Part shown: positions 4,614 through 44,149 of the stretch, in pieces
How the letters are laid out: the number at the start of each line of letters is the position of its first letter
Numbering within the stretch: the stretch's first letter is position 1
Source of the DNA: Byssovorax sp.
GTDB taxonomy: Bacteria > Myxococcota_A > Polyangia > Polyangiales > Polyangiaceae
Length of the DNA stretch: 64,000 nt
Assembly (NCBI GenBank): GCA_025362495.1
Contig: JANYGI010000026.1
Span: forward strand, 66,118 to 130,117
Direction of reading: 5' to 3'
Notes under the pieces: generated by a model
The model's database searches: none
Told to the model about the DNA's origin: nothing
What the model saw: only the letters and a program-made list of their open reading frames with translations
Made by a program: the position numbers and the translations under genes

Positions 4614-6422
4614 ATGCCCTCACCCCGCCTCGTGCCCACGATCCCGGACCTGCTCTCCGCCGATCCCGAGCTGCGCGTCGATCGAGCCGAGCTGAAGCAA
4701 ACCCTGATCTTCGCCTTCGCGGCCGGGAGCGCGGTCGACGCCTTCGACAGCGCCCTCGTCGGCGCGACGCTGCCGCGATCGCGCTGGGATCGCGGGCATT
4801 TCTCCAGGGATCTCTTCCTCGATCAGCTGATCGAGCGCTGCCTGCCGGTGCGGATCGGCGGGCGCGATCACGCGCCGTGCGCGGCGTACCTGCTCCGGGC
4901 GATCGCCGATCCTCCGCGCGACGCGGCGGTGACGGCGTTCCGTCGCGAGGTGCTGGAAGAGCTTGTTTCCTCGAAGGATCGTCGCGCCGAGCTCGAGCGC
5001 TGCTACCTGAAGATCGTCGAGCTGCGGACGCTGCTCTGCGCGGGGAGGCGCACCGGCGAGCGGCTGCGTCGCCTGGAAATTCTGCGCGCCGTTCACGACG
5101 TGATCGGCACCCTGGCGGGCTCGTTCGAGGGCGCGACCTCGGGGCTCGCGCGGGTCCGCGACTTCGGCGAGGCCGTGCGCGCGGGCGAGTCGTACCGTCG
5201 ACTCGACGCGCTGCTCGAGCACGAGCAGCACCTCGCGACGGTGGACCTGCGCGTGCGCATCGGCACCGACGGCGAGATCCGCGCCTTCCAGATCACGGCC
5301 GTCACCGAGAACCACGACAACCCGTTCCACGCCTCGGCCATCGGCCGATGGATCGCGAAGATACGCCTGTTTTTGCGGGGATATCGCGTCGACGGCGGCG
5401 AGGTCACCGAGCGGATCTTCGACGACGTGTTCACCGGCCTGGAAGAGAGCCTGGTGCTGATCTTCCAGCTCCTCGGCGACATGGAGTTCCACCTCGCGGC
5501 GCTCGGCTTCCGCGATCTCGCCGCGGCGAAGGGCCTCGCGGTCTGCTTCCCCGAGCTGGTCGTGGACGACGCGGAGGGCGCGCCCGGGATCAAGCTCGCG
5601 GGCCTCTTCAACCCGCTCTTGCTCGGCGAAAAGCGCGCTCCCGTGCCCTGCGACATCGACGTGGCGCGGGCCGGCTCGGTGGTGATCGTCACTGGCCCGA
5701 ACTCCGGCGGCAAGACGCGGCTGCTCCAGTCGGTGGCCTTCGCGCAGCTCCTCGGCGAAGCGGGGATGTTCGTGCCGGCGCGCGCGGCGCGGCTCCCGCG
5801 GGTGTCGGGGCTGTTCGTGTCGATCGTCGACGATTCGCGGGCCGATCAGCCCGAGGGGCAGCTCGGGATGGAGCTCTTGCGGATCCGGCGGATGTTCGAG
5901 GAGCTCGGCCCGGGCTCGCTGGTGCTGCTCGACGAGCTCTGCTCGGGGACGAACCCGTCGGAGGGCGAAGAGATCGCCCGCCTCGTGATCTCGCTCCTGC
6001 CCGAGCTCGGAGCGCAGGTGTTCGTGACGACGCATCTGCTGCATTTCGCGGCTCGCCTCGCCGAGGAGCCCTCGTTCTCGCGCACCGAGTTTCTCCAGGT
6101 CGAGCTCGACGAGCACGAGCGCGCGACGTACGGGTTCATCCCCGGCGTGGCCCGCACCTCGCTCGCGCACAAGACCGCCGCGCGCCTCGGTGTAACCCGC
6201 GACGAGCTGACCGCGTTGATCGCCGCGAAGAAGCGAGCCCCGCTGCTCGGGTCCAGCCCGCGCGCGAGTTCGCTGGCCACTCCCCCGGCCTCCGGCACTA
6301 CGATGCTCGCCGCCACCGCGGCGGCGATCGACGCTGCCGTGGGCCAGGCAGAACCCCACGAGGATCCCGATGCGCTCGTTCGCTCCGCTGCTCTCGCTCG
6401 CGTGCCTTCTCACGGCGTGTGA
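4614..6422 (+). CDS. MutS-family ATPase (domain V only, no Smr domain) with an unrecognised 350-aa N-terminal region
   Basis: Walker A VTGPNSGGKT and MutS signature LVLLDELCSGTNPSEGEEIA followed by VTTH. The 3' end overlaps the start of serpin 1 by 53 nt. Confidence 0.7.
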   Translation: MPSPRLVPTIPDLLSADPELRVDRAELKQTLIFAFAAGSAVDAFDSALVGATLPRSRWDRGHFSRDLFLDQLIERCLPVRIGGRDHAPCAAYLLRAIADPPRDAAVTAFRREVLEELVSSKDRRAELERCYLKIVELRTLLCAGRRTGERLRRLEILRAVHDVIGTLAGSFEGATSGLARVRDFGEAVRAGESYRRLDALLEHEQHLATVDLRVRIGTDGEIRAFQITAVTENHDNPFHASAIGRWIAKIRLFLRGYRVDGGEVTERIFDDVFTGLEESLVLIFQLLGDMEFHLAALGFRDLAAAKGLAVCFPELVVDDAEGAPGIKLAGLFNPLLLGEKRAPVPCDIDVARAGSVVIVTGPNSGGKTRLLQSVAFAQLLGEAGMFVPARAARLPRVSGLFVSIVDDSRADQPEGQLGMELLRIRRMFEELGPGSLVLLDELCSGTNPSEGEEIARLVISLLPELGAQVFVTTHLLHFAARLAEEPSFSRTEFLQVELDEHERATYGFIPGVARTSLAHKTAARLGVTRDELTALIAAKKRAPLLGSSPRASSLATPPASGTTMLAATAAAIDAAVGQAEPHEDPDALVRSAALARVPSHGV

Positions 6423-7716
6423 TCCCCCGACGCCGGCCGCCACGTCGTCGTCCGGCGGCGCGCCGATGCCGCCGCCCTCGGCCAGCCAGGTCGCTCCCGC
6501 GGAGTCGGCGACGCCCGCGCCCACCGCCTCGACGCCGCCCGTCGCTCCGCCCGCCGCCGGTGAGCTCGGCGCGCTCGCGAAGAGCAACAACGCTCTCGCG
6601 ATCGATCTCTACGGCAAGGCGCGCGCGCAGGCCGGCAACCTCGCGCTGTCGCCGATCAGCATCTCGACGGCGCTGACGATGACGTGGGGCGGCGCGAAGG
6701 GCGAGACCGCCGCGCAGATGAAGAAGGTGCTCCACGCCGAGGGCGAGCCGACCGCGGCGATGGACGTCTCGGGAAAGCTGCTCGCGAGCTTCGGCAACGA
6801 CGGCAACAAGGTCACCCTGCGCGTGGCCAACCGCCTCTTCGGCGAGAAGACGTACGCCTTCGAGCAGAGCTACCTCGATCGCACCAAGGCCGCGTTCGGC
6901 GCGCCGCTCGAAGCCCTCGATTTCAAGCACGCGGCCGATCCGTCGCGCGTCCACATCAACGAGTGGGTCGCGAAGCAGACCCAGGATCGGATCAAGGATC
7001 TCATCCCGAGCGGCGCCCTCACCATCGACACGCGGCTCGTGCTCACCAACGCCATCTACTTCCTCGGCGACTGGATGGAGCCGTTCGCGAAAGAGCAGAC
7101 GCGCCCCGCGGCGTTCCACGCGACCGCGAGCGCGACGAGCGACGTGCCGACGATGAACCAGGCGGCGCACTTCCGCTTCGCGGCGACCGATGGCGTGAAG
7201 GTCCTCGAGATGCCTTACCAGGGCGGCGAGGTGGCGATGGACTTCGTCCTGCCGGACGCGCCCGCGGGCCTCGACGCGGTGGAGAAGCGCCTCTCGACGG
7301 CGACCTTCGACGCGTGGATCGGCGCGATGAAGTTCGACCAGGTGAACGTCGCGCTGCCGAAGTTCGAGATCAACCCGGCGGCGTCGCTCTCGCTCGGCGA
7401 CACGCTGAAAGAGCTCGGGATGCCGCTCGCGTTCGACAAGGACAAGGCCGACTTCACCGGGATGGCCAACCCGCCGAGCCCGGCCGATCGGCTCTACATC
7501 AGCAAGGTCTTCCACAAGGCCTTCGTGAAGCTCGACGAGAAGGGGACCGAGGCCGCCGCGGCGACCGCCGTGGTGATGGCGCGCGCCGGCGCCGCCGCGC
7601 CGACTCAGCCGCCCTCGGTGTTCAAGGCCGACCACCCGTTCCTGTTCGTGCTCCGCCACGTGAAGTCGGGCGCGATCCTGTTCATGGGCCGCGTCAGCGA
7701 TCCCGCGGCGAAGTAG
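6370..7716 (+). CDS. Serpin (serine protease inhibitor) lipoprotein, paralogue 1
   Basis: Lipoprotein signal MRSFAPLLSLACLLTAC. Serpin core motifs NAIYFLGDW, hinge EKGTEAAAATAVV and C-terminal FKADHPFLFVLRH. About 45 kDa. Confidence 0.85.
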   Translation: MRSFAPLLSLACLLTACDPPTPAATSSSGGAPMPPPSASQVAPAESATPAPTASTPPVAPPAAGELGALAKSNNALAIDLYGKARAQAGNLALSPISISTALTMTWGGAKGETAAQMKKVLHAEGEPTAAMDVSGKLLASFGNDGNKVTLRVANRLFGEKTYAFEQSYLDRTKAAFGAPLEALDFKHAADPSRVHINEWVAKQTQDRIKDLIPSGALTIDTRLVLTNAIYFLGDWMEPFAKEQTRPAAFHATASATSDVPTMNQAAHFRFAATDGVKVLEMPYQGGEVAMDFVLPDAPAGLDAVEKRLSTATFDAWIGAMKFDQVNVALPKFEINPAASLSLGDTLKELGMPLAFDKDKADFTGMANPPSPADRLYISKVFHKAFVKLDEKGTEAAAATAVVMARAGAAAPTQPPSVFKADHPFLFVLRHVKSGAILFMGRVSDPAAK

Positions 7717-7819
7717 CCCCGCCGCGGCGATCGCGCCGATCGCGCCTCGCGGCGCCGAGATCGTCGCGGTCGCCGTGTCCCGTTCTCCCTCCCCAGCCAC
7801 CGACGAGAGACCCCTGCGC

Positions 7820-9169
7820 ATGCGCTTGCTCGCTTCGATTTTCCCTTTCGCGATCGTCGGCGCGGGGTGCAATCCGCCGCCGTCGACCGCGTCGACCGCG
7901 TCCGCCGAGGCGACGACGCCGTCCGCCGCGACGCGACCGCCGATCGTCTTCGCCACCACGCGCGCGCTCGCGCCGGTGAAGCCCGCACCGCGCGTCGATG
8001 CGCCCACGGACGCCGAGATCGCGGTGTTCGCGAAGAGCAACAACGCGTTCGGGCTCGATCTGTACGGGAAGGCGCGCGCGCAGGCCGGGAACGTGGCGAT
8101 CGCGCCGATCAGCGTCACGTCGGCGCTGACGATGACGTGGGGCGGGGCGCGCGGCGAGACCGCGGCGCAGATGAAGAAGGTGCTCCACGCCGAGGGCGAC
8201 GCGGGGCCCGCGATGGACGTCGCCGGGAAGCTTGTCGGGAGCTTCGGCAACGACGGCAACAAGGTGACGTTGCGCGTCGCCAACCGCCTCTTCGGCGAGA
8301 AGACGTACGCGTTCGATCCGGCCTACCTCGATCACACCAGGGCCGCGTTCGGGGCGCCGCTCGAAAGCCTCGACTTCAAGGGGGCGTTCGAGGCGAGCCG
8401 CGGGCACATCAACGACTGGGTCGCGGGGCAGACGCAGGATCGGATCAAGGAGCTGCTGCCCGCGGGCGCGCTCGACGCGGACACCAGCCTCGTGCTCACG
8501 AACGCCATCTATTTCCTCGGCGCGTGGGCCTCGCCGTTCGCGATCGCGGCGACGCGCCCGGCGCCGTTCCACGCGACCGCGAAGGCCGCGAGCGACGTGC
8601 CGACGATGAGCCAGACCGAGCAGTTTCGATTCGCGGCGACCGACGGCGTGCGGGTGCTCGAGATGCCGTACGCGGGCGGCGACGTGGCGATGACGTTCGT
8701 CTTGCCGGACGCGCCCGACGGGCTCGACGCCGTGGAGAAGCGGCTCTCGACGGCGACGATCGACGCGTGGACGAGCGCGCTGAAGCCCGATCGCGTGGCG
8801 GTCGCGCTACCGAAATTCGAGATCGCCCCGGCGGCGTCGCTCGCTCTCGGCGGCGCGCTGCAAGAGCTCGGCATGCCGATCGCGTTCGACAAGAGCAAGG
8901 CTGATTTCAGCGGCATGATCAACGCGAAGAGCCCCGCCGATCGGCTCTTCATCAGCAAGGTCTTCCACAAGGCCTTCGTGAAGCTCGACGAGAAGGGGAC
9001 CGAGGCCGCCGCGGCCAGCGCGGTGGTGATGAGCGGGCCCGGCGGGGTCGCGCCGAGCGCGCCGCCGTCGGCGTTCAAGGCCGATCACCCGTTCCTGTTC
9101 CTGCTTCGCCACGTGAAATCGGGCGCGGTGCTCTTCATGGGCCGCGTCTCCGACCCTTCGAAGAAGTGA
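7820..9169 (+). CDS. Serpin lipoprotein, paralogue 2
   Basis: Start taken at MRLLASIFPFAIVGAGC (lipobox); an in-frame ATG also exists at 7775. Same serpin motifs as paralogue 1 but a different reactive-centre loop, VVMSGPGGVAPSAPPSAF. Confidence 0.85.
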   Translation: MRLLASIFPFAIVGAGCNPPPSTASTASAEATTPSAATRPPIVFATTRALAPVKPAPRVDAPTDAEIAVFAKSNNAFGLDLYGKARAQAGNVAIAPISVTSALTMTWGGARGETAAQMKKVLHAEGDAGPAMDVAGKLVGSFGNDGNKVTLRVANRLFGEKTYAFDPAYLDHTRAAFGAPLESLDFKGAFEASRGHINDWVAGQTQDRIKELLPAGALDADTSLVLTNAIYFLGAWASPFAIAATRPAPFHATAKAASDVPTMSQTEQFRFAATDGVRVLEMPYAGGDVAMTFVLPDAPDGLDAVEKRLSTATIDAWTSALKPDRVAVALPKFEIAPAASLALGGALQELGMPIAFDKSKADFSGMINAKSPADRLFISKVFHKAFVKLDEKGTEAAAASAVVMSGPGGVAPSAPPSAFKADHPFLFLLRHVKSGAVLFMGRVSDPSKK

Positions 9170-9212
9170 CCGCGCGAGGACGAGCCTCGCGCGTGTCCCC
9201 CTGCATCCACGA

Positions 9213-10502
9213 ATGGAAGAGGCTGTCGTGCACCTGCGATTGATTGTTTCGACTTGCGCCTTCGCGCTCCTCGGCGCTGCTTGCAGCGGCTCCCCCATCA
9301 CCCCCGCGACGGGGGGCGACGACGCCCACCCGCCGCCACCCGGCGCGGCCGACGTCGGCAGCTTCGCGAAGAGCAGCAACGCGCTCGGGCTCGATCTGTA
9401 CGCCAGGGCGCGCGCGCGGCCGGGGAACCTGGCGCTCTCGCCGATCAGCGTCGCCGCGGCGCTGACGATGACGTGGGGCGGGGCGCGCGGCGAGACCGCG
9501 GCGCAGATGAAGAAGGTGCTCCACGCCGAGGGCGAGTCGGGTCCGGCGATGGACGTCGCGGGCCAGCTCCTCGCGAGCTTCGGCGGCGAGGGCAGCAAGG
9601 TCACGCTGCGCGTGGCCAACCGCCTCTTCGGCGAGAAGACCTATGCCTTCGAGCAGGCCTATCTGGATCACACCAAGGCGGCCTTCGGAGCGCCCCTGGA
9701 GGCCCTGGATTTCAAGGGCAACGTCGAGCCCAGCCGCGTGCACATCAACGCCTGGGTGGCCGGCCAGACGCAGGATCGGATCAAGGATCTCATCCCCGCA
9801 GGCGGGGTCAGCGGCGACACCCGCCTCGTGCTCACCAACGCCATCTATTTTCTGGGGAACTGGATGTCGCCGTTCACGAAGGAGGCCACGCGCCCCGCGG
9901 CCTTCCACGTGACGGCGAGCGCGTCGCGCGACGTGCCGACGATGAACCAGGACGCGCGCCTTCGCTTCGCGGCGACCGACGGCGTGAAGGTCCTGGAGAT
10001 GCCGTACGAGGGCGGCGAAGTGGCGATGGACTTCGTGCTACCCGACGCGGCCGACGGGCTCGACGCGGTGGAGAAGCGGCTCTCGACCGCGGCGATCGAC
10101 GCCTGGATCGGCGCGATGAAGTCGGAGCACGTGGACGTCGCGCTGCCGAAGTTCGAGATCAACCCGGCGGCGTCGATCTCGCTCGGCGACACGCTGAGAG
10201 AGCTCGGGATGCCGCTCGCTTTCACGGCGGGCAAGGCCGACTTCACCGGGATGGCCAACCCGCCGATCGCCGCGGATCGGCTCTACCTCGACAAGGTCTT
10301 TCACAAGGCCTTCGTGAAGCTCGACGAGAAGGGCACCGAGGCGGCCGCGGCGACCGCGGTGGTGATCAACGTCGAGACCGCGATGGTCCCGAGCCCGTCG
10401 GTGACCTTCAAGGCCGATCACCCGTTCCTGTTCGTGCTCCGCCACCTGAAGTCGGGGGCGATCCTGTTCATGGGCCGCGTCAGCGATCCCGCGGCGAAGT
10501 AG
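9213..10502 (+). CDS. Serpin lipoprotein, paralogue 3
   Basis: Signal/lipobox CAFALLGAAC; a GTG at 9228 may be the true start. Serpin motifs conserved. Reactive-centre loop VVINVETAMVPSPSVTF differs from paralogues 1 and 2. Confidence 0.85.
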   Translation: MEEAVVHLRLIVSTCAFALLGAACSGSPITPATGGDDAHPPPPGAADVGSFAKSSNALGLDLYARARARPGNLALSPISVAAALTMTWGGARGETAAQMKKVLHAEGESGPAMDVAGQLLASFGGEGSKVTLRVANRLFGEKTYAFEQAYLDHTKAAFGAPLEALDFKGNVEPSRVHINAWVAGQTQDRIKDLIPAGGVSGDTRLVLTNAIYFLGNWMSPFTKEATRPAAFHVTASASRDVPTMNQDARLRFAATDGVKVLEMPYEGGEVAMDFVLPDAADGLDAVEKRLSTAAIDAWIGAMKSEHVDVALPKFEINPAASISLGDTLRELGMPLAFTAGKADFTGMANPPIAADRLYLDKVFHKAFVKLDEKGTEAAAATAVVINVETAMVPSPSVTFKADHPFLFVLRHLKSGAILFMGRVSDPAAK

Positions 10503-12385: not shown

Positions 12386-13531
12386 TCAGTCTCCGCCGAG
12401 CCTGATCCGCGCGCGGAGCATGAGCGCGCCGATCAGGTCCTCGTCGGCGTCGCTGCGCTGCGACCACCCGAGGGCCAGGTAACAGAGCAGCTCGCCGAGG
12501 GTGGTGCCGCTCGGCGTGACACGGCCGGGGCGCACGATCGCCAGCTGCTCGCCGTCCGCTGCGAGGCCCACGATCGCCTGCGTCGAGGACGCGCCCAGCG
12601 CCGAGCCCAGGATCCTCGCCACCGGGTAGAGGCCGGCGGCGGCGCCGCGCTCCCACGCGTCGTCGCTCTCGAGGGCCCGGAGCTCGGCCTCGCGGAGAAA
12701 CTGGAGCGTGCCTTCGATCGCGCCGATCGAGAGCTCGCGATAGCGGTCCGTCGGATCGCCGGGATCGACCCAGTCGTAGACGCTGACGAAGGCTGCGTGG
12801 CCTGCGGGCTGCGCGACGCCGCGGAGTGCTGGTGGCGCGGTGAATGCGCCACGGCCCGGGGTGCGGCGAAGCGCGCGCACGAGCCGGCGCGCCTCGTCGG
12901 CGATGGCCTCTGGCCCCGGCGCGATCAGCCGCACGTCGACGCGCCGCTCGGTGTCGAACAGCGCGCCCATCAGCGCCGGGAGCGCGGGCGCGCGGAGCTC
13001 GCTCGAGAGGAACGTCGAGCCGCGGTGCGGCCGGATCGCGGTGGCCTCGGCGGCGCGCTCCTCGGCGTCGGTCGCGTCGTCGTCGATCGCGATCGCGATC
13101 TCGTGCACCTCGCTGGCCTCGGCGCTCTCGACGCCGGCCTCGATCCCTTCCTCGCTCTCGCGCACGAAATGCCGCTGAAACGTGCCAGAAGCGAAGCTCC
13201 ACCCGTCGTCGTGGATCACGTCCTCCGCGAAGATCGCGCAGAGCACGCGCGCGTCGGGCGCGCCGAGCTCGGCGGCCGCGTCGATCACCCCGACCGCGGG
13301 CGAGACCTCGGCCTCGAAGAGCTCGACCAGGTGCTCGAGGTCCTCGCCGTCACGGCCGAGGCCGCTCGCGTAGAACGCGACCGAGTACCCGGGGACGCCG
13401 CGCAGCTCGGCGATCATCAGGTGCGGCGCGGGCACGTCGAAGCCGGCGAGCGCCACCGCGAAGCCCCGCGAGAGGGCTCGATCCGTGACCTCGGCGGGGC
13501 GAAACAGGAGCGCGGCGAAGGGAGAGGTCAT
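12386..13531 (-). CDS. Hypothetical protein
   Basis: Balanced amino-acid composition with high GC3. Start taken at MTSPFAALLF (cat at 13529-13531); the track ORF extends further upstream. No recognisable domain. Confidence 0.4.
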   Translation of the reverse strand: MTSPFAALLFRPAEVTDRALSRGFAVALAGFDVPAPHLMIAELRGVPGYSVAFYASGLGRDGEDLEHLVELFEAEVSPAVGVIDAAAELGAPDARVLCAIFAEDVIHDDGWSFASGTFQRHFVRESEEGIEAGVESAEASEVHEIAIAIDDDATDAEERAAEATAIRPHRGSTFLSSELRAPALPALMGALFDTERRVDVRLIAPGPEAIADEARRLVRALRRTPGRGAFTAPPALRGVAQPAGHAAFVSVYDWVDPGDPTDRYRELSIGAIEGTLQFLREAELRALESDDAWERGAAAGLYPVARILGSALGASSTQAIVGLAADGEQLAIVRPGRVTPSGTTLGELLCYLALGWSQRSDADEDLIGALMLRARIRLGGD

Positions 13532-40232: not shown

Positions 40233-41648
40233 GTGGAGATCTGCGAGAACCTGGTCGGTGGCGAGCGTCGCGGCGGCGATCCGCTCCTGGTGCGGAGCCC
40301 GTTCGATGGAGAGGTGATCGGCGAGGCCGCGCTCGGCGGCCCCGAGGTGATCGAGGCAGCGATCGACGCCGCCGTGCGCGCCCAGCCGGCGATGGCGGCG
40401 CTCACGCGCGAGGCCCGCGCCGCGATCCTCGAACGCATGGCCGAGGCCGTGGCGAAGCGGAGCGAGGAGCTCGGGCGCCTGATCCAGCGCGAGTCGGGCA
40501 AGCCGATCACCTACGCGCGGCTCGAGGTCAGCCGCTGCGTCGACACGCTGCGCGCGAGCGCCGACGCCGCGCGCGGGATCGCCGGCGCCGAGATCCCGCT
40601 CGACGCCGCCAGGCCCGGCGAGGGGCGCCTGGCCTTCACGCGGCGCTTTCCCGTGGGGCCCATCGCGTCGATCACGCCCTTCAATTTCCCCCTCAACCTC
40701 GTCGCGCACAAGGTCGGCCCGGCCATCGCCGCGGGCTGCGCCAACGTCGTCAAGCCCGCCTCGCAGACGCCGCTCTCGGCGATCCGGCTCGGCGAGATCG
40801 CCATGGCCGCGGGCCTCCCGCGCGGCGGGATCAACGTCGTCGCCTGCGATCGTCGCACCGGTCAGCGCCTCGTCGAGGACGATCGCTTGCGCCTGCTCAC
40901 CTTCACGGGGAGCCCCGACGTGGGCTTCAAGATGAAGCGCGACGCCGGTAAAAAGCGCGTGGTGCTCGAGCTCGGCGGCAACGCGGCGGCGATCGTGCTG
41001 CCCGACGCCGACGTCGATCACGCGGCCGCGCGCTGCGCCGTCGGCGGCTACTACCAGGCGGGGCAGTCGTGCATCTCGGTGCAGCGGGTGATCGTGCACC
41101 GCGATGTCTACCCGCGGTTTCGCGACGCCCTCGCCGACCGCACGCGGGCGATCCCGTTCGGCGATCCGGCCGACGACGTCACGGTGTGTGGCCCGCTCAT
41201 CGACGAGGGCAACGCCGAGCGGGTGATGACGTGGATCGACGAGGCGCGCGGCCTCGGCGGCAAGATCCTCGTCGGCGGCGATCGCCGCGGCGGCGTGGTC
41301 CCGCCGACGCTGATCGAGGGCGCGCCGGCCACCGCGCGCGTGGTGGCCGACGAGGTCTTCGGCCCGGTGATCGCCCTCTCGATCGCCGACTCGATGGAGC
41401 ACGCCGTCGCCCTCGCCGGCGCGACGCGCTTCGGCCTCCAGTGCGGGATCTTCACCCACGATCTCCGCGCCGTGCTCCACGCGTGGGATCACCTCGATGT
41501 AGGCGGCCTGATCCACAACGATACGCCGGCGTTTCGCGTCGATCTGATGCCGTACGGCGGCGTGCGCGACAGCGGCCTCGGCCGCGAAGGCCCGCGCTAC
41601 ACGGTCGAAGAGCTGACCGAGCAGCGCCTCCTCGTGCTCTCGCGGTGA
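40233..41648 (+). CDS. NAD(P)-dependent aldehyde dehydrogenase
   Basis: ALDH motifs FNFPLNLVAHKVGPAIAAGCANVVKPAS, ELGGNAAAIV, catalytic Cys in GQSCISVQR and EVFGPV. GTG start with SD GGGGGAGAG. Confidence 0.85.
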   Translation: MEICENLVGGERRGGDPLLVRSPFDGEVIGEAALGGPEVIEAAIDAAVRAQPAMAALTREARAAILERMAEAVAKRSEELGRLIQRESGKPITYARLEVSRCVDTLRASADAARGIAGAEIPLDAARPGEGRLAFTRRFPVGPIASITPFNFPLNLVAHKVGPAIAAGCANVVKPASQTPLSAIRLGEIAMAAGLPRGGINVVACDRRTGQRLVEDDRLRLLTFTGSPDVGFKMKRDAGKKRVVLELGGNAAAIVLPDADVDHAAARCAVGGYYQAGQSCISVQRVIVHRDVYPRFRDALADRTRAIPFGDPADDVTVCGPLIDEGNAERVMTWIDEARGLGGKILVGGDRRGGVVPPTLIEGAPATARVVADEVFGPVIALSIADSMEHAVALAGATRFGLQCGIFTHDLRAVLHAWDHLDVGGLIHNDTPAFRVDLMPYGGVRDSGLGREGPRYTVEELTEQRLLVLSR

Positions 41649-41692
41649 CCACCAGATCCAGAGCATCTCCGATTCAGATCTGGATCTCCCTC

Positions 41693-41838
41693 TGATGTGG
41701 GGCGGGCCTCCGCGCCCGCCGCATGGACCGGCTCGAGCCACAAAGCCGAGTGAAACCGGTTCGAGAGTGGATCCGGCTCAGGTCGGGGCTGCTGTAGAGG
41801 TTCCATGTGGCGGGCACGGAGGCCCGCCCCACACCAGA
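41693..41838. repeat. Nested inverted-repeat element (35-bp arms with 3 mismatches around a palindrome-rich 76-bp core)
   Basis: Arm 41693-41727 ctgatgtggggcgggcctccgcgcccgccgcatgg versus the RC of 41804-41838 ctggtgtggggcgggcctccgtgcccgccacatgg. The core contains the perfect palindromes GGCTCGAGCC and AACCGGTT. A 9-bp hairpin AGATCCAGA/TCTGGATCT sits just upstream (41655-41690). Confidence 0.7.
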
Positions 41839-41857
41839 AAATGCACCAGAAAAGGCT

Positions 41858-44149
41858 TCAGAGACCGAAGCGCTCGATGATCGCCGCCTGGCGCTCCAGC
41901 TCGCCCGTGAGCTCGAGCGCCTGGGCGAGGCCCGGCCACACCAGCGGTGACTCGTCGGCTCCCCCGTGGCGCGCCAGCAGATCGTGGAGCTCGCGGCGCG
42001 AGCAGCCTGCCGGGGCCGCGAGGTACGCGAGCAGCCCCGGGCGCGCCGCGTCGGTCGCCGCTTCGGTCACGACGTAGGTCGCGTCGCTCTGCACCGCGAG
42101 CACGCAGCCGCGCGCCTTGAGATCCGCGCGCAGGGCCTCCAGCCGCTCGGCCCCCGGGTGGACGCCGTCGAGCAAATAAGACTCGTATTCGCCTGGTTTT
42201 CGCGTCGTGATCGCCGGGTAGAGGTAGGTGTGATTCTCCTCGCCCGCGCCGGGCGCGGGGTTACGCGGGGCGGCCTCGAAGACGATCTCGTCGCCGTAGT
42301 GCTGCGGCGCGCGCGGCCGCGCGACCTCGAGGATCCGCGCCGTCACCGGCCCGGTGCGCAGCGCGTGGTGGACGCCGACCTCGCCGTCGGGCTCGCGCAG
42401 CTCGATCCGGCAAAGGCCCCAGGCCTCCTCGATCGGGCCCTCGCCCTGCACGTTCATCCCGATGCGGATCGCCGACGCGCGCACCGCGTCCCAGCGGCCG
42501 AGGAGCGTGGCCGTGACCATTCGATCCCAGTCGTGGTTGCCCGCGCGCGGCTCGCGCTCGACCAGCCGATCGAGGCGCGCGAGCGACTCTTCCAGGCGAC
42601 CCGCTTCGCGATCGAGGCTCGCCAGGAGCAGCTCGAGCCGCAGGTTCCCGGGCTCCAGCGCGAGCATCGCTTCGAGGTGCGGGCGAGCCTTCTCGCGCTC
42701 GTCTTCCTGCTGATAGGCCGTCGCGAGGAGGAAGTGCGCGCCCACCGCGATCTCGCCCTTCGGCTCCGCGGCGAGCGACGCCTCCGCGAGCGCGCGCGCC
42801 TCGGGGGATCGCTTCTGATCCAGCAGCGACTGGCCGAGCGTCATCAGCACGCCGTGCGCGCCGGGGAAGGCCGTGAGGTGCGCGCGCAGCCCGGCCTCGG
42901 CCTCGGCGTGGCGCGAGAGGGCGCGGCGCGCCGACGCCGCGATGATCGCCAGCCGCTCCTCGTCGGGAAAGCGCGCGCGCCCCGCCGCGAGGATCTCCAG
43001 ATCGGTCTCGGGATCGCTGGTGAGCTGAGCGAGCGCGAGCTCGGCGCTGCCCGGCGGATGGCGCGCATCCTTCACGGCCTCGCGCGCGGCCGCGATCGCC
43101 GTGTCGAGCCGCGCGAGATCGTCGTCGGCGCCGAGCGGCCGCCGCAAGCGCGGGACGAGCGCGCGGATCGACGCGGCGGCGTGCTCCGCGGTGCCGAGGC
43201 GATCGCGGGCGATGGCGAGCTCGGCGCGCCGATGCGCGATGCCGATCGCGACGCGCACCACGCCGCTGTCGGCGAGCTTGGTCTCGAGCTCGAAGAAGCG
43301 GGCCTCGAGCTTCCAGTCACCGGGCGCGGCCAGCGCGAGCGCGAGGGCGTGCATGGCCTGCGTCCAGCGCTCGTAGAGGCTCGGCGTCGGGAGGATCCGA
43401 TCGAACGGCGGCAGCGCGAGCAGCGCCTCTTCGCAGCGTCCGAGCCTCGCCAGGAGCCTGGCCGCGTCGAGCGCGTGGGTGAGCTGATCGTTGACGTCGG
43501 TCTCGGTCTCGCGCGCCCGCAGCGCCACCGCGAGCGCCTCGTCGAGGCGATCGAGCCGGAACAGCGCCTCGGTCCGCGCGGTCGCGAGGTGGCGCGTCGC
43601 GGCCCCGCGCCCGGCGCCCACCAGCGCCTCGGCCTGGGCGTCGAGGAACGCGACCGCGGCCGCCGCCCTGCCGTCGTCGATCAGGCCGTAGGCGTACTCG
43701 CTTGAAATGCAGGTGAAACAGGGCCATTTCGCGTCGATGCGCGCCAGCGTCTCGCGGGCGACGGCGATCCGATCCGGGGCGTAGCCCGGCCCGTCGAGCT
43801 CGGCGTAGCAGCCCGCGAGATCCTGGATCACGCACACGCTCTGCGGGCAGTCGCGCGCCTCGTCGCGCGACGCGAGCTCGAGCAGGCGCACCGCCTCGGG
43901 CAGGTACGCCGTGGCCTCGTGGCGGTGGAGGATGCGGCTCTGCAGGTTCCAGTGGCGAATGAAGAGCTCGAGCCAGGGGCTCTTGGCCTCGCGCGCGAGG
44001 GCCAGCGCCTCGGGCACGATGGCGTCGAGCTGCGCGTGCTCGTGGTTGACGACGTGGCCGGGGATGCGGCGGGTGAGCTCGGCTAGGCGGGGCCTCCCGC
44101 TCTCGTTCAGCTCGCGTTGCAGATCGTGAACCCAGCGCCAGATGTCCAT
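41858..44149 (-). CDS. Large alpha-helical (TPR-like) hypothetical protein, co-operonic with an Hsp90-like ATPase
   Basis: 763 aa, Ala/Leu/Arg-rich helical repeats, two Cys pairs near the N-terminus (CPQSVC and CFTC). No motif I can assign. Its start lies 4 nt after the stop of the upstream Hsp90-like gene. Confidence 0.55.
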   Translation of the reverse strand: MDIWRWVHDLQRELNESGRPRLAELTRRIPGHVVNHEHAQLDAIVPEALALAREAKSPWLELFIRHWNLQSRILHRHEATAYLPEAVRLLELASRDEARDCPQSVCVIQDLAGCYAELDGPGYAPDRIAVARETLARIDAKWPCFTCISSEYAYGLIDDGRAAAAVAFLDAQAEALVGAGRGAATRHLATARTEALFRLDRLDEALAVALRARETETDVNDQLTHALDAARLLARLGRCEEALLALPPFDRILPTPSLYERWTQAMHALALALAAPGDWKLEARFFELETKLADSGVVRVAIGIAHRRAELAIARDRLGTAEHAAASIRALVPRLRRPLGADDDLARLDTAIAAAREAVKDARHPPGSAELALAQLTSDPETDLEILAAGRARFPDEERLAIIAASARRALSRHAEAEAGLRAHLTAFPGAHGVLMTLGQSLLDQKRSPEARALAEASLAAEPKGEIAVGAHFLLATAYQQEDEREKARPHLEAMLALEPGNLRLELLLASLDREAGRLEESLARLDRLVEREPRAGNHDWDRMVTATLLGRWDAVRASAIRIGMNVQGEGPIEEAWGLCRIELREPDGEVGVHHALRTGPVTARILEVARPRAPQHYGDEIVFEAAPRNPAPGAGEENHTYLYPAITTRKPGEYESYLLDGVHPGAERLEALRADLKARGCVLAVQSDATYVVTEAATDAARPGLLAYLAAPAGCSRRELHDLLARHGGADESPLVWPGLAQALELTGELERQAAIIERFGL

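Follow-up and report, generated by a model that had tools for sequence, protein, structure and literature searches.

The DNA between an aldehyde dehydrogenase gene and a TPR-repeat protein gene of the Polyangiaceae myxobacterium Byssovorax sp. holds a long and highly structured inverted repeat, and the question arises whether it is a mobile element, a transcription terminator or a structured RNA. We analyzed this repeat within the 64-kb stretch of contig sequence that contains it (hereafter, the window) and at the corresponding sites of related genomes. In our opinion, the repeat is very probably a REPIN, i.e., a non-autonomous mobile element that consists of two inverted REP units with their heads outside, was inserted between two convergent genes and is presumably dependent on a RayT transposase.

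The convergent arrangement of the flanking genes, already pointed out in a preliminary description of this DNA, was borne out: the stop codon of the aldehyde dehydrogenase gene ends at position 41648 on the plus strand and that of the TPR gene at 41858 on the minus strand. The intergenic gap is 209 nt long, and the element lies wholly outside the genes (Table 1). Among the other genes of the window we noted three consecutive serpin genes (6220-10499, plus strand; PF00079, E = 1e-106 to 1e-111) and two tRNA genes (Rfam RF00005; 38908-39086) located upstream of the aldehyde dehydrogenase region, between the genes for Cpn10 and a PP2C-like protein.

Table 1. Features of the element and its surroundings (positions in the window)
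Feature	Position	Strand	Description
Aldehyde dehydrogenase gene, flanking	40233..41648	+	Pfam PF00171, E = 4.9e-136; converges on the element
Left remainder of intergenic DNA	41649..41690		Lineage-specific; holds a 9-bp hairpin, 41654-41662 / 41679-41687
Whole element (148 nt), very probably a REPIN built of two REP units with their heads outside (HH dimer)	41691..41838		Inverted repeat; foldable as one long imperfect hairpin
Left REP unit	41691..41727	+	GTGG head 41697-41700; stem 41701-41707 (GGCGGGC) / 41714-41720 (GCCCGCC); loop 41708-41713 (CTCCGC); conserved tail GCATGGA
Spacer, 74 nt	41728..41801		Internal hairpins, including the palindromes GGCTCGAGCC (41730-41739) and AACCGGTT (41754-41761)
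Right REP unit, inverted	41802..41838	-	GTGG head 41832-41829; stem 41828-41822 / 41815-41809; loop 41821-41816 (CTCCGT on the minus strand)
Right remainder of intergenic DNA	41839..41857		A 12-nt tandem repeat reaches in
TPR-repeat protein gene, flanking	41858..44149	-	Pfam TPR_19; converges on the element

A blastn self-match sets the two arms in exact register over 37 nt with three mismatches, and the inverted repeat stretches to 48 nt at 83% complementarity (41691-41738 versus 41791-41838). The element had been described as two 35-nt arms with three mismatches around a 76-bp core; the inverted repeat is real, but its right arm had been placed 2 nt out of register and the spacer is shorter by the same amount. 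The perfect palindromes and the extra 9-bp hairpin upstream, reported at the same time, are present. What had been overlooked is that each arm contains a hairpin of its own, with a 7-bp stem (GGCGGGC / GCCCGCC) and a 6-nt loop (CTCCGY), and that the tetranucleotide GTGG stands at the outer foot of both arm hairpins. Rather than a mere long palindrome, the element thus consists of a unit of roughly 31-37 nt present twice with the heads outward. REPINs are composed of two inverted REPs (PMC3116915, PMC3337134), and REPs of the GTAG type form HH dimers with spacers of 20-100 bp, GTGG heads being a variant (PMC3733652). Since each arm combines a hairpin with a GTGG head, we interpret the arm as a GTAG-type REP and the pair as a heads-outside REP dimer, that is, a REPIN. 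We counted against this reading that the head is GTGG and not GTAG, and that it is partly base-paired with the tail.

The structure of the intergenic element is far beyond chance. Its predicted RNA folds reach -120 kcal/mol on the plus strand (z = -7.8) and -127 kcal/mol on the minus strand (z = -8.5), and the DNA fold of a 154-nt unit reaches -56.6 kcal/mol (z = -8.6); in each of the three cases, none of 200 shuffled sequences folded as well. It is also the strongest inverted repeat in the 64-kb window, where every other one is at most 82% complementary. On its right side, 12 nt are repeated in tandem (CACCAGAAAATG / CACCAGAAAAGG, 41832-41855), partly within the outer end of the right REP, and a similar sequence, CCACCAGATC (41649-41658), opens the intergenic DNA just after the aldehyde dehydrogenase stop codon; the tandem repeat and its look-alike may be a footprint of slippage or insertion. 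The left 42 nt of the intergenic DNA had no relative at any compared locus in blastn searches and matched only the source's own contigs.

Very strong folds on both strands, exactly between two convergent stop codons, are also what could be seen in a large bidirectional terminator or 3'-end stabilizer that evolved in place and has no mobile origin, and REP-like hairpins have been credited with termination and mRNA stabilization (PMC3733652). We consider such an origin improbable. A consensus scan revealed no T-run after the big hairpin on either strand, and its sole hit was a small minus-strand hairpin of 7 bp (41871-41855). Moreover, as described below, related genomes manage with a few nucleotides between the same genes, and the arm sequence recurs at unrelated loci and beside RayT genes. 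A terminator-like effect may exist as a secondary consequence.

We traced orthologues of the TPR gene to their contigs and read the junction with the aldehyde dehydrogenase gene in each of them. The orthologues were 94-79% identical to the TPR protein of the window; several came from genomes named Byssovorax sp., and the window was placed in the same group. At several of these sites the junction is very short and has no element: 15 nt separate the stop codons in one contig (L135; TPR identity 83%) and 9 nt in three others (L136-138; 81%), while the genes overlap by 4 nt in two more (L139 and L140; 83%). The short gap is likely to be the ancestral state, and hence about 200 nt of the window is likely to be inserted DNA. 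A filled site was found in a contig with a TPR identity of 85% (L134), where a GTAG-headed REP with a similar inner flank lies beside the TPR stop codon and the JGI contig ends in the spacer. The closest orthologues (L127-131; 94%) gave a third picture, a 184-nt gap with an inverted repeat of its own, 32 nt long and 88% complementary. By eye, this insert has no similarity to the gap of the window; it is unrelated to the REPIN, and its palindrome is not repeated in the compared loci. Its sequence (L127:12293-12476, identical in L128-L131) has the arms TTCAACGCAGAGACGCAGAGGCGCAGAGGCGC / GCGCCTCTGCGTCTCCGCGCCTCCGCGTTGAA with 48 nt between them.

Two further loci differ in their gene content. In the Byssovorax MAG contig JBDTXR010000024 (L132, 7737-7857; TPR identity 80%) there is no aldehyde dehydrogenase gene, and the TPR gene is directly followed by a PP2C gene; the aldehyde dehydrogenase neighbor of the REPIN is thus itself variable. 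In L133, a gene call of 1075 aa on the other strand seems to run across the aldehyde dehydrogenase gene.

The preliminary description had suggested looking at the same intergenic region in related strains, and this comparison revealed empty (L135-140), filled (L134) and replaced (L127-131) sites. The site is therefore polymorphic for the presence and absence of the element. As the element is present in the window and in the 85% relative and absent from the 94% relatives, its distribution needs at least two events, either a gain and a replacement or two gains, which we counted as a point against the REPIN reading. Insertions may possibly favor the tiny space between the convergent genes, where sister lineages have two unrelated palindromic insertions.

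An insertion polymorphism of this kind, arms that are long (37 nt) and terminal, and a total of 148 nt, which is a typical MITE size, would also suit a conventional MITE, i.e., the terminal inverted repeats of an insertion sequence of the DDE type whose interior was deleted and whose transposase acts in trans. This explanation appears very improbable to us. The element is bordered by ...GGATCTCCC on the left and AAATGCACC... on the right (...ATCTCCC and AAATGCA..., respectively) and no target-site duplication was found; the lack of a direct repeat at its ends speaks against a DDE-type MITE. In addition, the arms are themselves hairpins and, as shown below, often occur as singlets.

Within the window, only the two arms themselves match the arm sequence (three mismatches allowed; gapped stem pattern), and other GT[AG]G hairpins are not in excess (10 hits in a generic scan versus 2-16 in shuffled sequences). 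A scan of the collection, with one genome per species and a strict pattern, detected the 31-nt arm in four contigs, all of them from one related MAG, Byssovorax sp. JBDTXR01. Three of them contain singlets and one (L002) an inverted doublet, in which the hairpin cores are 87 nt apart versus 88 nt in the window; the geometry is kept, as far as two doublets can tell. The left copy in L002 and the copy in L134 have a GTAG head, and both arms of the window have GTGG. A diverged copy from the same MAG (L132:8683-8723) has GCATGGACC[A/G]GCTCGAGCCAC in common with the window, which means that the GGCTCGAGCC palindrome belongs to the sequence of the family. In total, at least six units were counted on five contigs of the Byssovorax MAG and two in the 64-kb window. 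Since 64 kb yielded a single doublet and the related MAG about six units, the REP population of the Byssovorax group may be small, old or inactive, which also weighs against a REPIN. The preliminary description had allowed for a single-copy and unconserved element that would be just a large terminator; this does not apply here because the arm is multi-copy elsewhere.

In the alignment of this subfamily, conservation extends over about 50 nt (TCTCNTGTGGGGCGGGCCTCCGTGCCCGCCGCATGGA and about 15 nt of the inner side), after which the copies diverge. Accordingly, the first 15-20 nt at each side of the spacer are common to other Byssovorax-type copies, and its center is not, as seen when the window is compared with the L002 doublet; blastn found no relative of the spacer center at any compared locus. 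Six of the eight aligned full copies have CT dinucleotides at a distance of 3-6 nt from the head on its outer side (e.g., TCTGATGTGG and TCTCATGTGG). Binding by the E. coli RayT depends on the 5' GTAG at the foot of the hairpin, as does cleavage, which occurs at CT dinucleotides (PMC3479197); the CT dinucleotides observed here are compatible with this cleavage model.

Both arms interrupt the short-read (Logan) assembly of the source sample: one contig (L005) ends at the position corresponding to 41724 and another (L006) at that corresponding to 41809. The two arms of the window have no 31-mer in common with each other. These breaks fit the presence of extra copies elsewhere in the source genome and are suggestive only, as poor sequencing coverage of a strong hairpin could also explain them.

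The inner part of the arm is distributed much more widely. Its 21-nt core, GGGCGGGCCTCCGYGCCCGCC (41700-41720), was found at no fewer than 120 metagenome loci in a scan of metagenome contigs, and these loci span 46% to 75% G+C. The core is directly preceded by GTG, GTA or TAG in 108 of 129 copies (84%), versus about 5% by chance, although these bases lay outside the search pattern. Thus, the arms of the window belong to a repeated family of GT[AG]G-headed hairpins (REPs). Pairs of the same core occur at seven loci; they are inverted at five, always with the heads outside, and direct at two (L018 and L083). The cores are 78 nt apart in L071 and 17-243 nt apart elsewhere in other taxa. Such heads and HH dimers are what defines the GTAG-tagged REP superfamily (PMC3733652). 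We found no sign of carriage by phages, the core being present in only 4 of 2.9 million viral contigs, and no paper on this core was found in the searchable literature.

Within 5-10 nt after many copies of the core stands another G+C hairpin of a different kind, which ends with CCCACC or CCCTAC (e.g., L010, L019, L054, L057, L060). As these endings correspond to an inverted head, such pairs of the core and a second hairpin can be read as heterodimers. The second hairpins found with the core in metagenome contigs are of several types, for example GGCGGCCAGGGACGGCCGCCCCACC and GGTGCGCAGTGCGCACCCTAC, and in one group of metagenome copies a conserved CCCGTAAA-CATGAAAAG motif precedes the core. In other taxa, the core thus seems to take part both in REP heterodimers and in a larger composite repeat.

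The loci described above were chosen by the DNA core alone, so any protein that recurs among them is informative. RayT-like open reading frames were revealed in five of the at least 120 loci by a probe search followed by a local HMM, and in four of the five the core is within about 100 nt of the gene. The first probe was an approximate E. coli RayT sequence, and the matches were confirmed with Pfam: four of the five open reading frames reach the gathering score of Y1_Tnp (PF01797), the one in L053 stays below it (18 bits versus a cut-off of 23), and all five contain the HUH motif. The protein from L076 is 45% identical to this approximate E. coli RayT (YafM) probe. According to our estimate, which assumes one gene per genome, about 0.1 RayT genes are expected in 569 kb. 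In L071, the RayT gene (1726-2217) has doublets of the same core on both sides (1524/1643 and 2230/2348; 78 nt between cores), and the sequence around it is visibly A+T-rich. The gene in L018 lies between cores at 8068 and 8743, and in L053 and L080 the core is located 30-60 nt from the gene. RayT genes therefore adjoin the same core in other genomes.

A protein profile built from L018 and L071 retrieved 1690 relatives, many of them labeled 'REP element-mobilizing transposase RayT' by JGI; their hosts include Azospirillaceae, Syntrophobacterales, Planctomycetota, Calditrichota and Desulfomonile. As an independent check, we inspected two relatives picked on protein similarity alone. One of them, from a Desulfomonile MAG (L143), is flanked by the GTAG hairpins GTAGGGCCGGCGTCCCTGCCGGCC and GTAGCTACCGGCCTCCGTGCCGGTAG; the second hairpin shares the loop CCTCCGTG with the core and differs from it in the stem, ACCGGC/GCCGGT, in which the pairing is kept. 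The other, from Azospirillaceae (L141), has a degenerate core 70 nt upstream. It can be added that the L143 contig, assigned to Desulfomonile tiedjei, contains three RayT-like open reading frames within 11 kb (2013-2615, 9965-10453 and 12784-13248), one of which has GTAGCTACCGGCCTCCGTC partial hairpins in short tandem arrays upstream.

A point against the REPIN reading came from the source organism and its relatives. A local HMM run over all open reading frames of at least 60-80 aa detected no RayT gene in the window and none in about 300 kb of Byssovorax-like loci, none was among the best 25 of the 70 families listed in a Pfam scan of 46 open reading frames of the window, and no Polyangiaceae protein was among the best 120 of the 1690 homologues.

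The only gene that recurs beside the core is a Y1/HUH RayT and not a DDE transposase, which is a further argument against a MITE. The preliminary description had offered two names together, MITE and REP-like mobile palindrome; the first is very improbable for the reasons given, and the second is supported by an arm family that is recurrent, adjacent to RayT genes and absent from the sites of relatives. A structured non-coding RNA gene, either a small RNA or a cis-regulatory element with a fold under selection, which had also been suggested and for which the very stable predicted structure and the G-U pairing tolerated at some arm pairs could be cited, is about as hard to accept as a MITE and received no support, since Rfam 15 recognized only the two tRNAs in the whole window at the gathering threshold and nothing overlapping the element in 41500-42000 at E values of up to 10, no promoter-like site was found, the spacer is unconserved beyond about 15-20 nt from the arms so that the two doublets of the Byssovorax-type subfamily differ in its center, and the unit occurs in both orientations and also as half-elements.

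A REPIN could have reached this site in the following way. A single-copy RayT, an HUH/Y1 enzyme akin to the transposases of the IS200/IS605 family, would recognize the folded REP hairpin and its head on single-stranded DNA and cut near the REP. The doublet would then be moved or copied to a new extragenic site with no target-site duplication. In the case considered here, a copy would have landed in the few base pairs between the convergent stop codons, so that a gap of about 10 nt became one of 209 nt. Being transcribed into the 3' ends of both genes, the element would form a strong stem-loop barrier to 3' exonucleases or to read-through as a by-product; located in both 3' untranslated regions, it probably acts as such a barrier, which would be a side-effect and would not account for its existence. 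From E. coli TnpA-REP and Pseudomonas REPINs, we infer a RayT-dependent mechanism in the source organism, together with any current activity of the element and any effect at the RNA level.

The element shares most of its organization with the REPINs and RAYTs of Pseudomonas fluorescens SBW25 (Bertels and Rainey, 2011; PMC3116915, PMC3337134). In both cases two inverted REP hairpins separated by a short spacer are foldable into one long hairpin and are located outside genes, singlets occur beside doublets, and RayT genes are flanked by the same units, as in L071 and L018. The differences are in the sequence, in the host phylum (Myxococcota, family Polyangiaceae, in our case) and in the size of the population, which is apparently small here versus hundreds of copies in SBW25. 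The closest parallels in the REP unit itself are found in the GTAG-tagged REP superfamily (Di Nocera et al., 2013, PMC3733652), which includes SMAG of Stenotrophomonas and the GTGG-headed GTAG-20 of Opitutus terrae. Its members likewise have a G+C stem of 6-9 bp, a short loop and a tetranucleotide head of the unpaired type; they form heads-outside dimers with spacers of 20-100 bp, possibly with small stem-loops, and favor sites between convergent or co-directional genes. In contrast to them, the head is mostly GTGG here, and in the Byssovorax-type unit it pairs in part with an additional conserved tail, RCATGGA.

Two other systems are comparable in their recognition signals. In the E. coli REP/BIME system with TnpA-REP (RayT, YafM), described by Messing et al. 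(2012, PMC3479197), a hairpin is likewise recognized together with the 5' tetranucleotide at its foot. However, BIMEs pair two types of REPs (y and z) with linkers that bind IHF or gyrase, whereas both arms of the present element, as known from its sequence, are of the same type. The subterminal hairpins of IS200/IS605 elements resemble it in being imperfect hairpins of single-stranded DNA, served by an HUH/Y1 enzyme with no target-site duplication, but in IS200/IS605 elements two different hairpins in direct orientation enclose a transposase gene of the element itself, and the element studied here is non-coding and only 148 nt long.

Identification of the element as a REPIN would explain its striking structure without a new RNA or regulatory device. 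It also documents a REP/REPIN family in myxobacteria of the family Polyangiaceae; no papers linking RayT or REPINs with Polyangiaceae were found in the searchable literature. The comparison of filled and empty orthologous sites could be used to date the gain and loss of the REPIN. From the practical point of view, the element breaks short-read assemblies at this locus and splits it over several contigs, which matters for the quality of MAGs.

What goes beyond the routine is solely the letter-perfect 21-nt core beside RayT genes in hosts that differ widely in base composition. Such a wide occurrence of an identical core bears on the question of how strongly RayT constrains its DNA partner. The sequences of REPINs are usually pictured as lineage-specific and vertically inherited. 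It can tentatively be proposed, as a possibility that we hold to be rather doubtful at present, that GGGCGGGCCTCCGYGCCCGCC and the RayT clade associated with it belong to one REP/RayT lineage, in which the DNA core has been kept letter for letter across very different bacteria, the Polyangiaceae copy being one outpost. If this is true, the conservation of the core would be in conflict with the usual view of REPINs and would point either to a very tight co-constraint between RayT and its DNA or to repeated horizontal spread.
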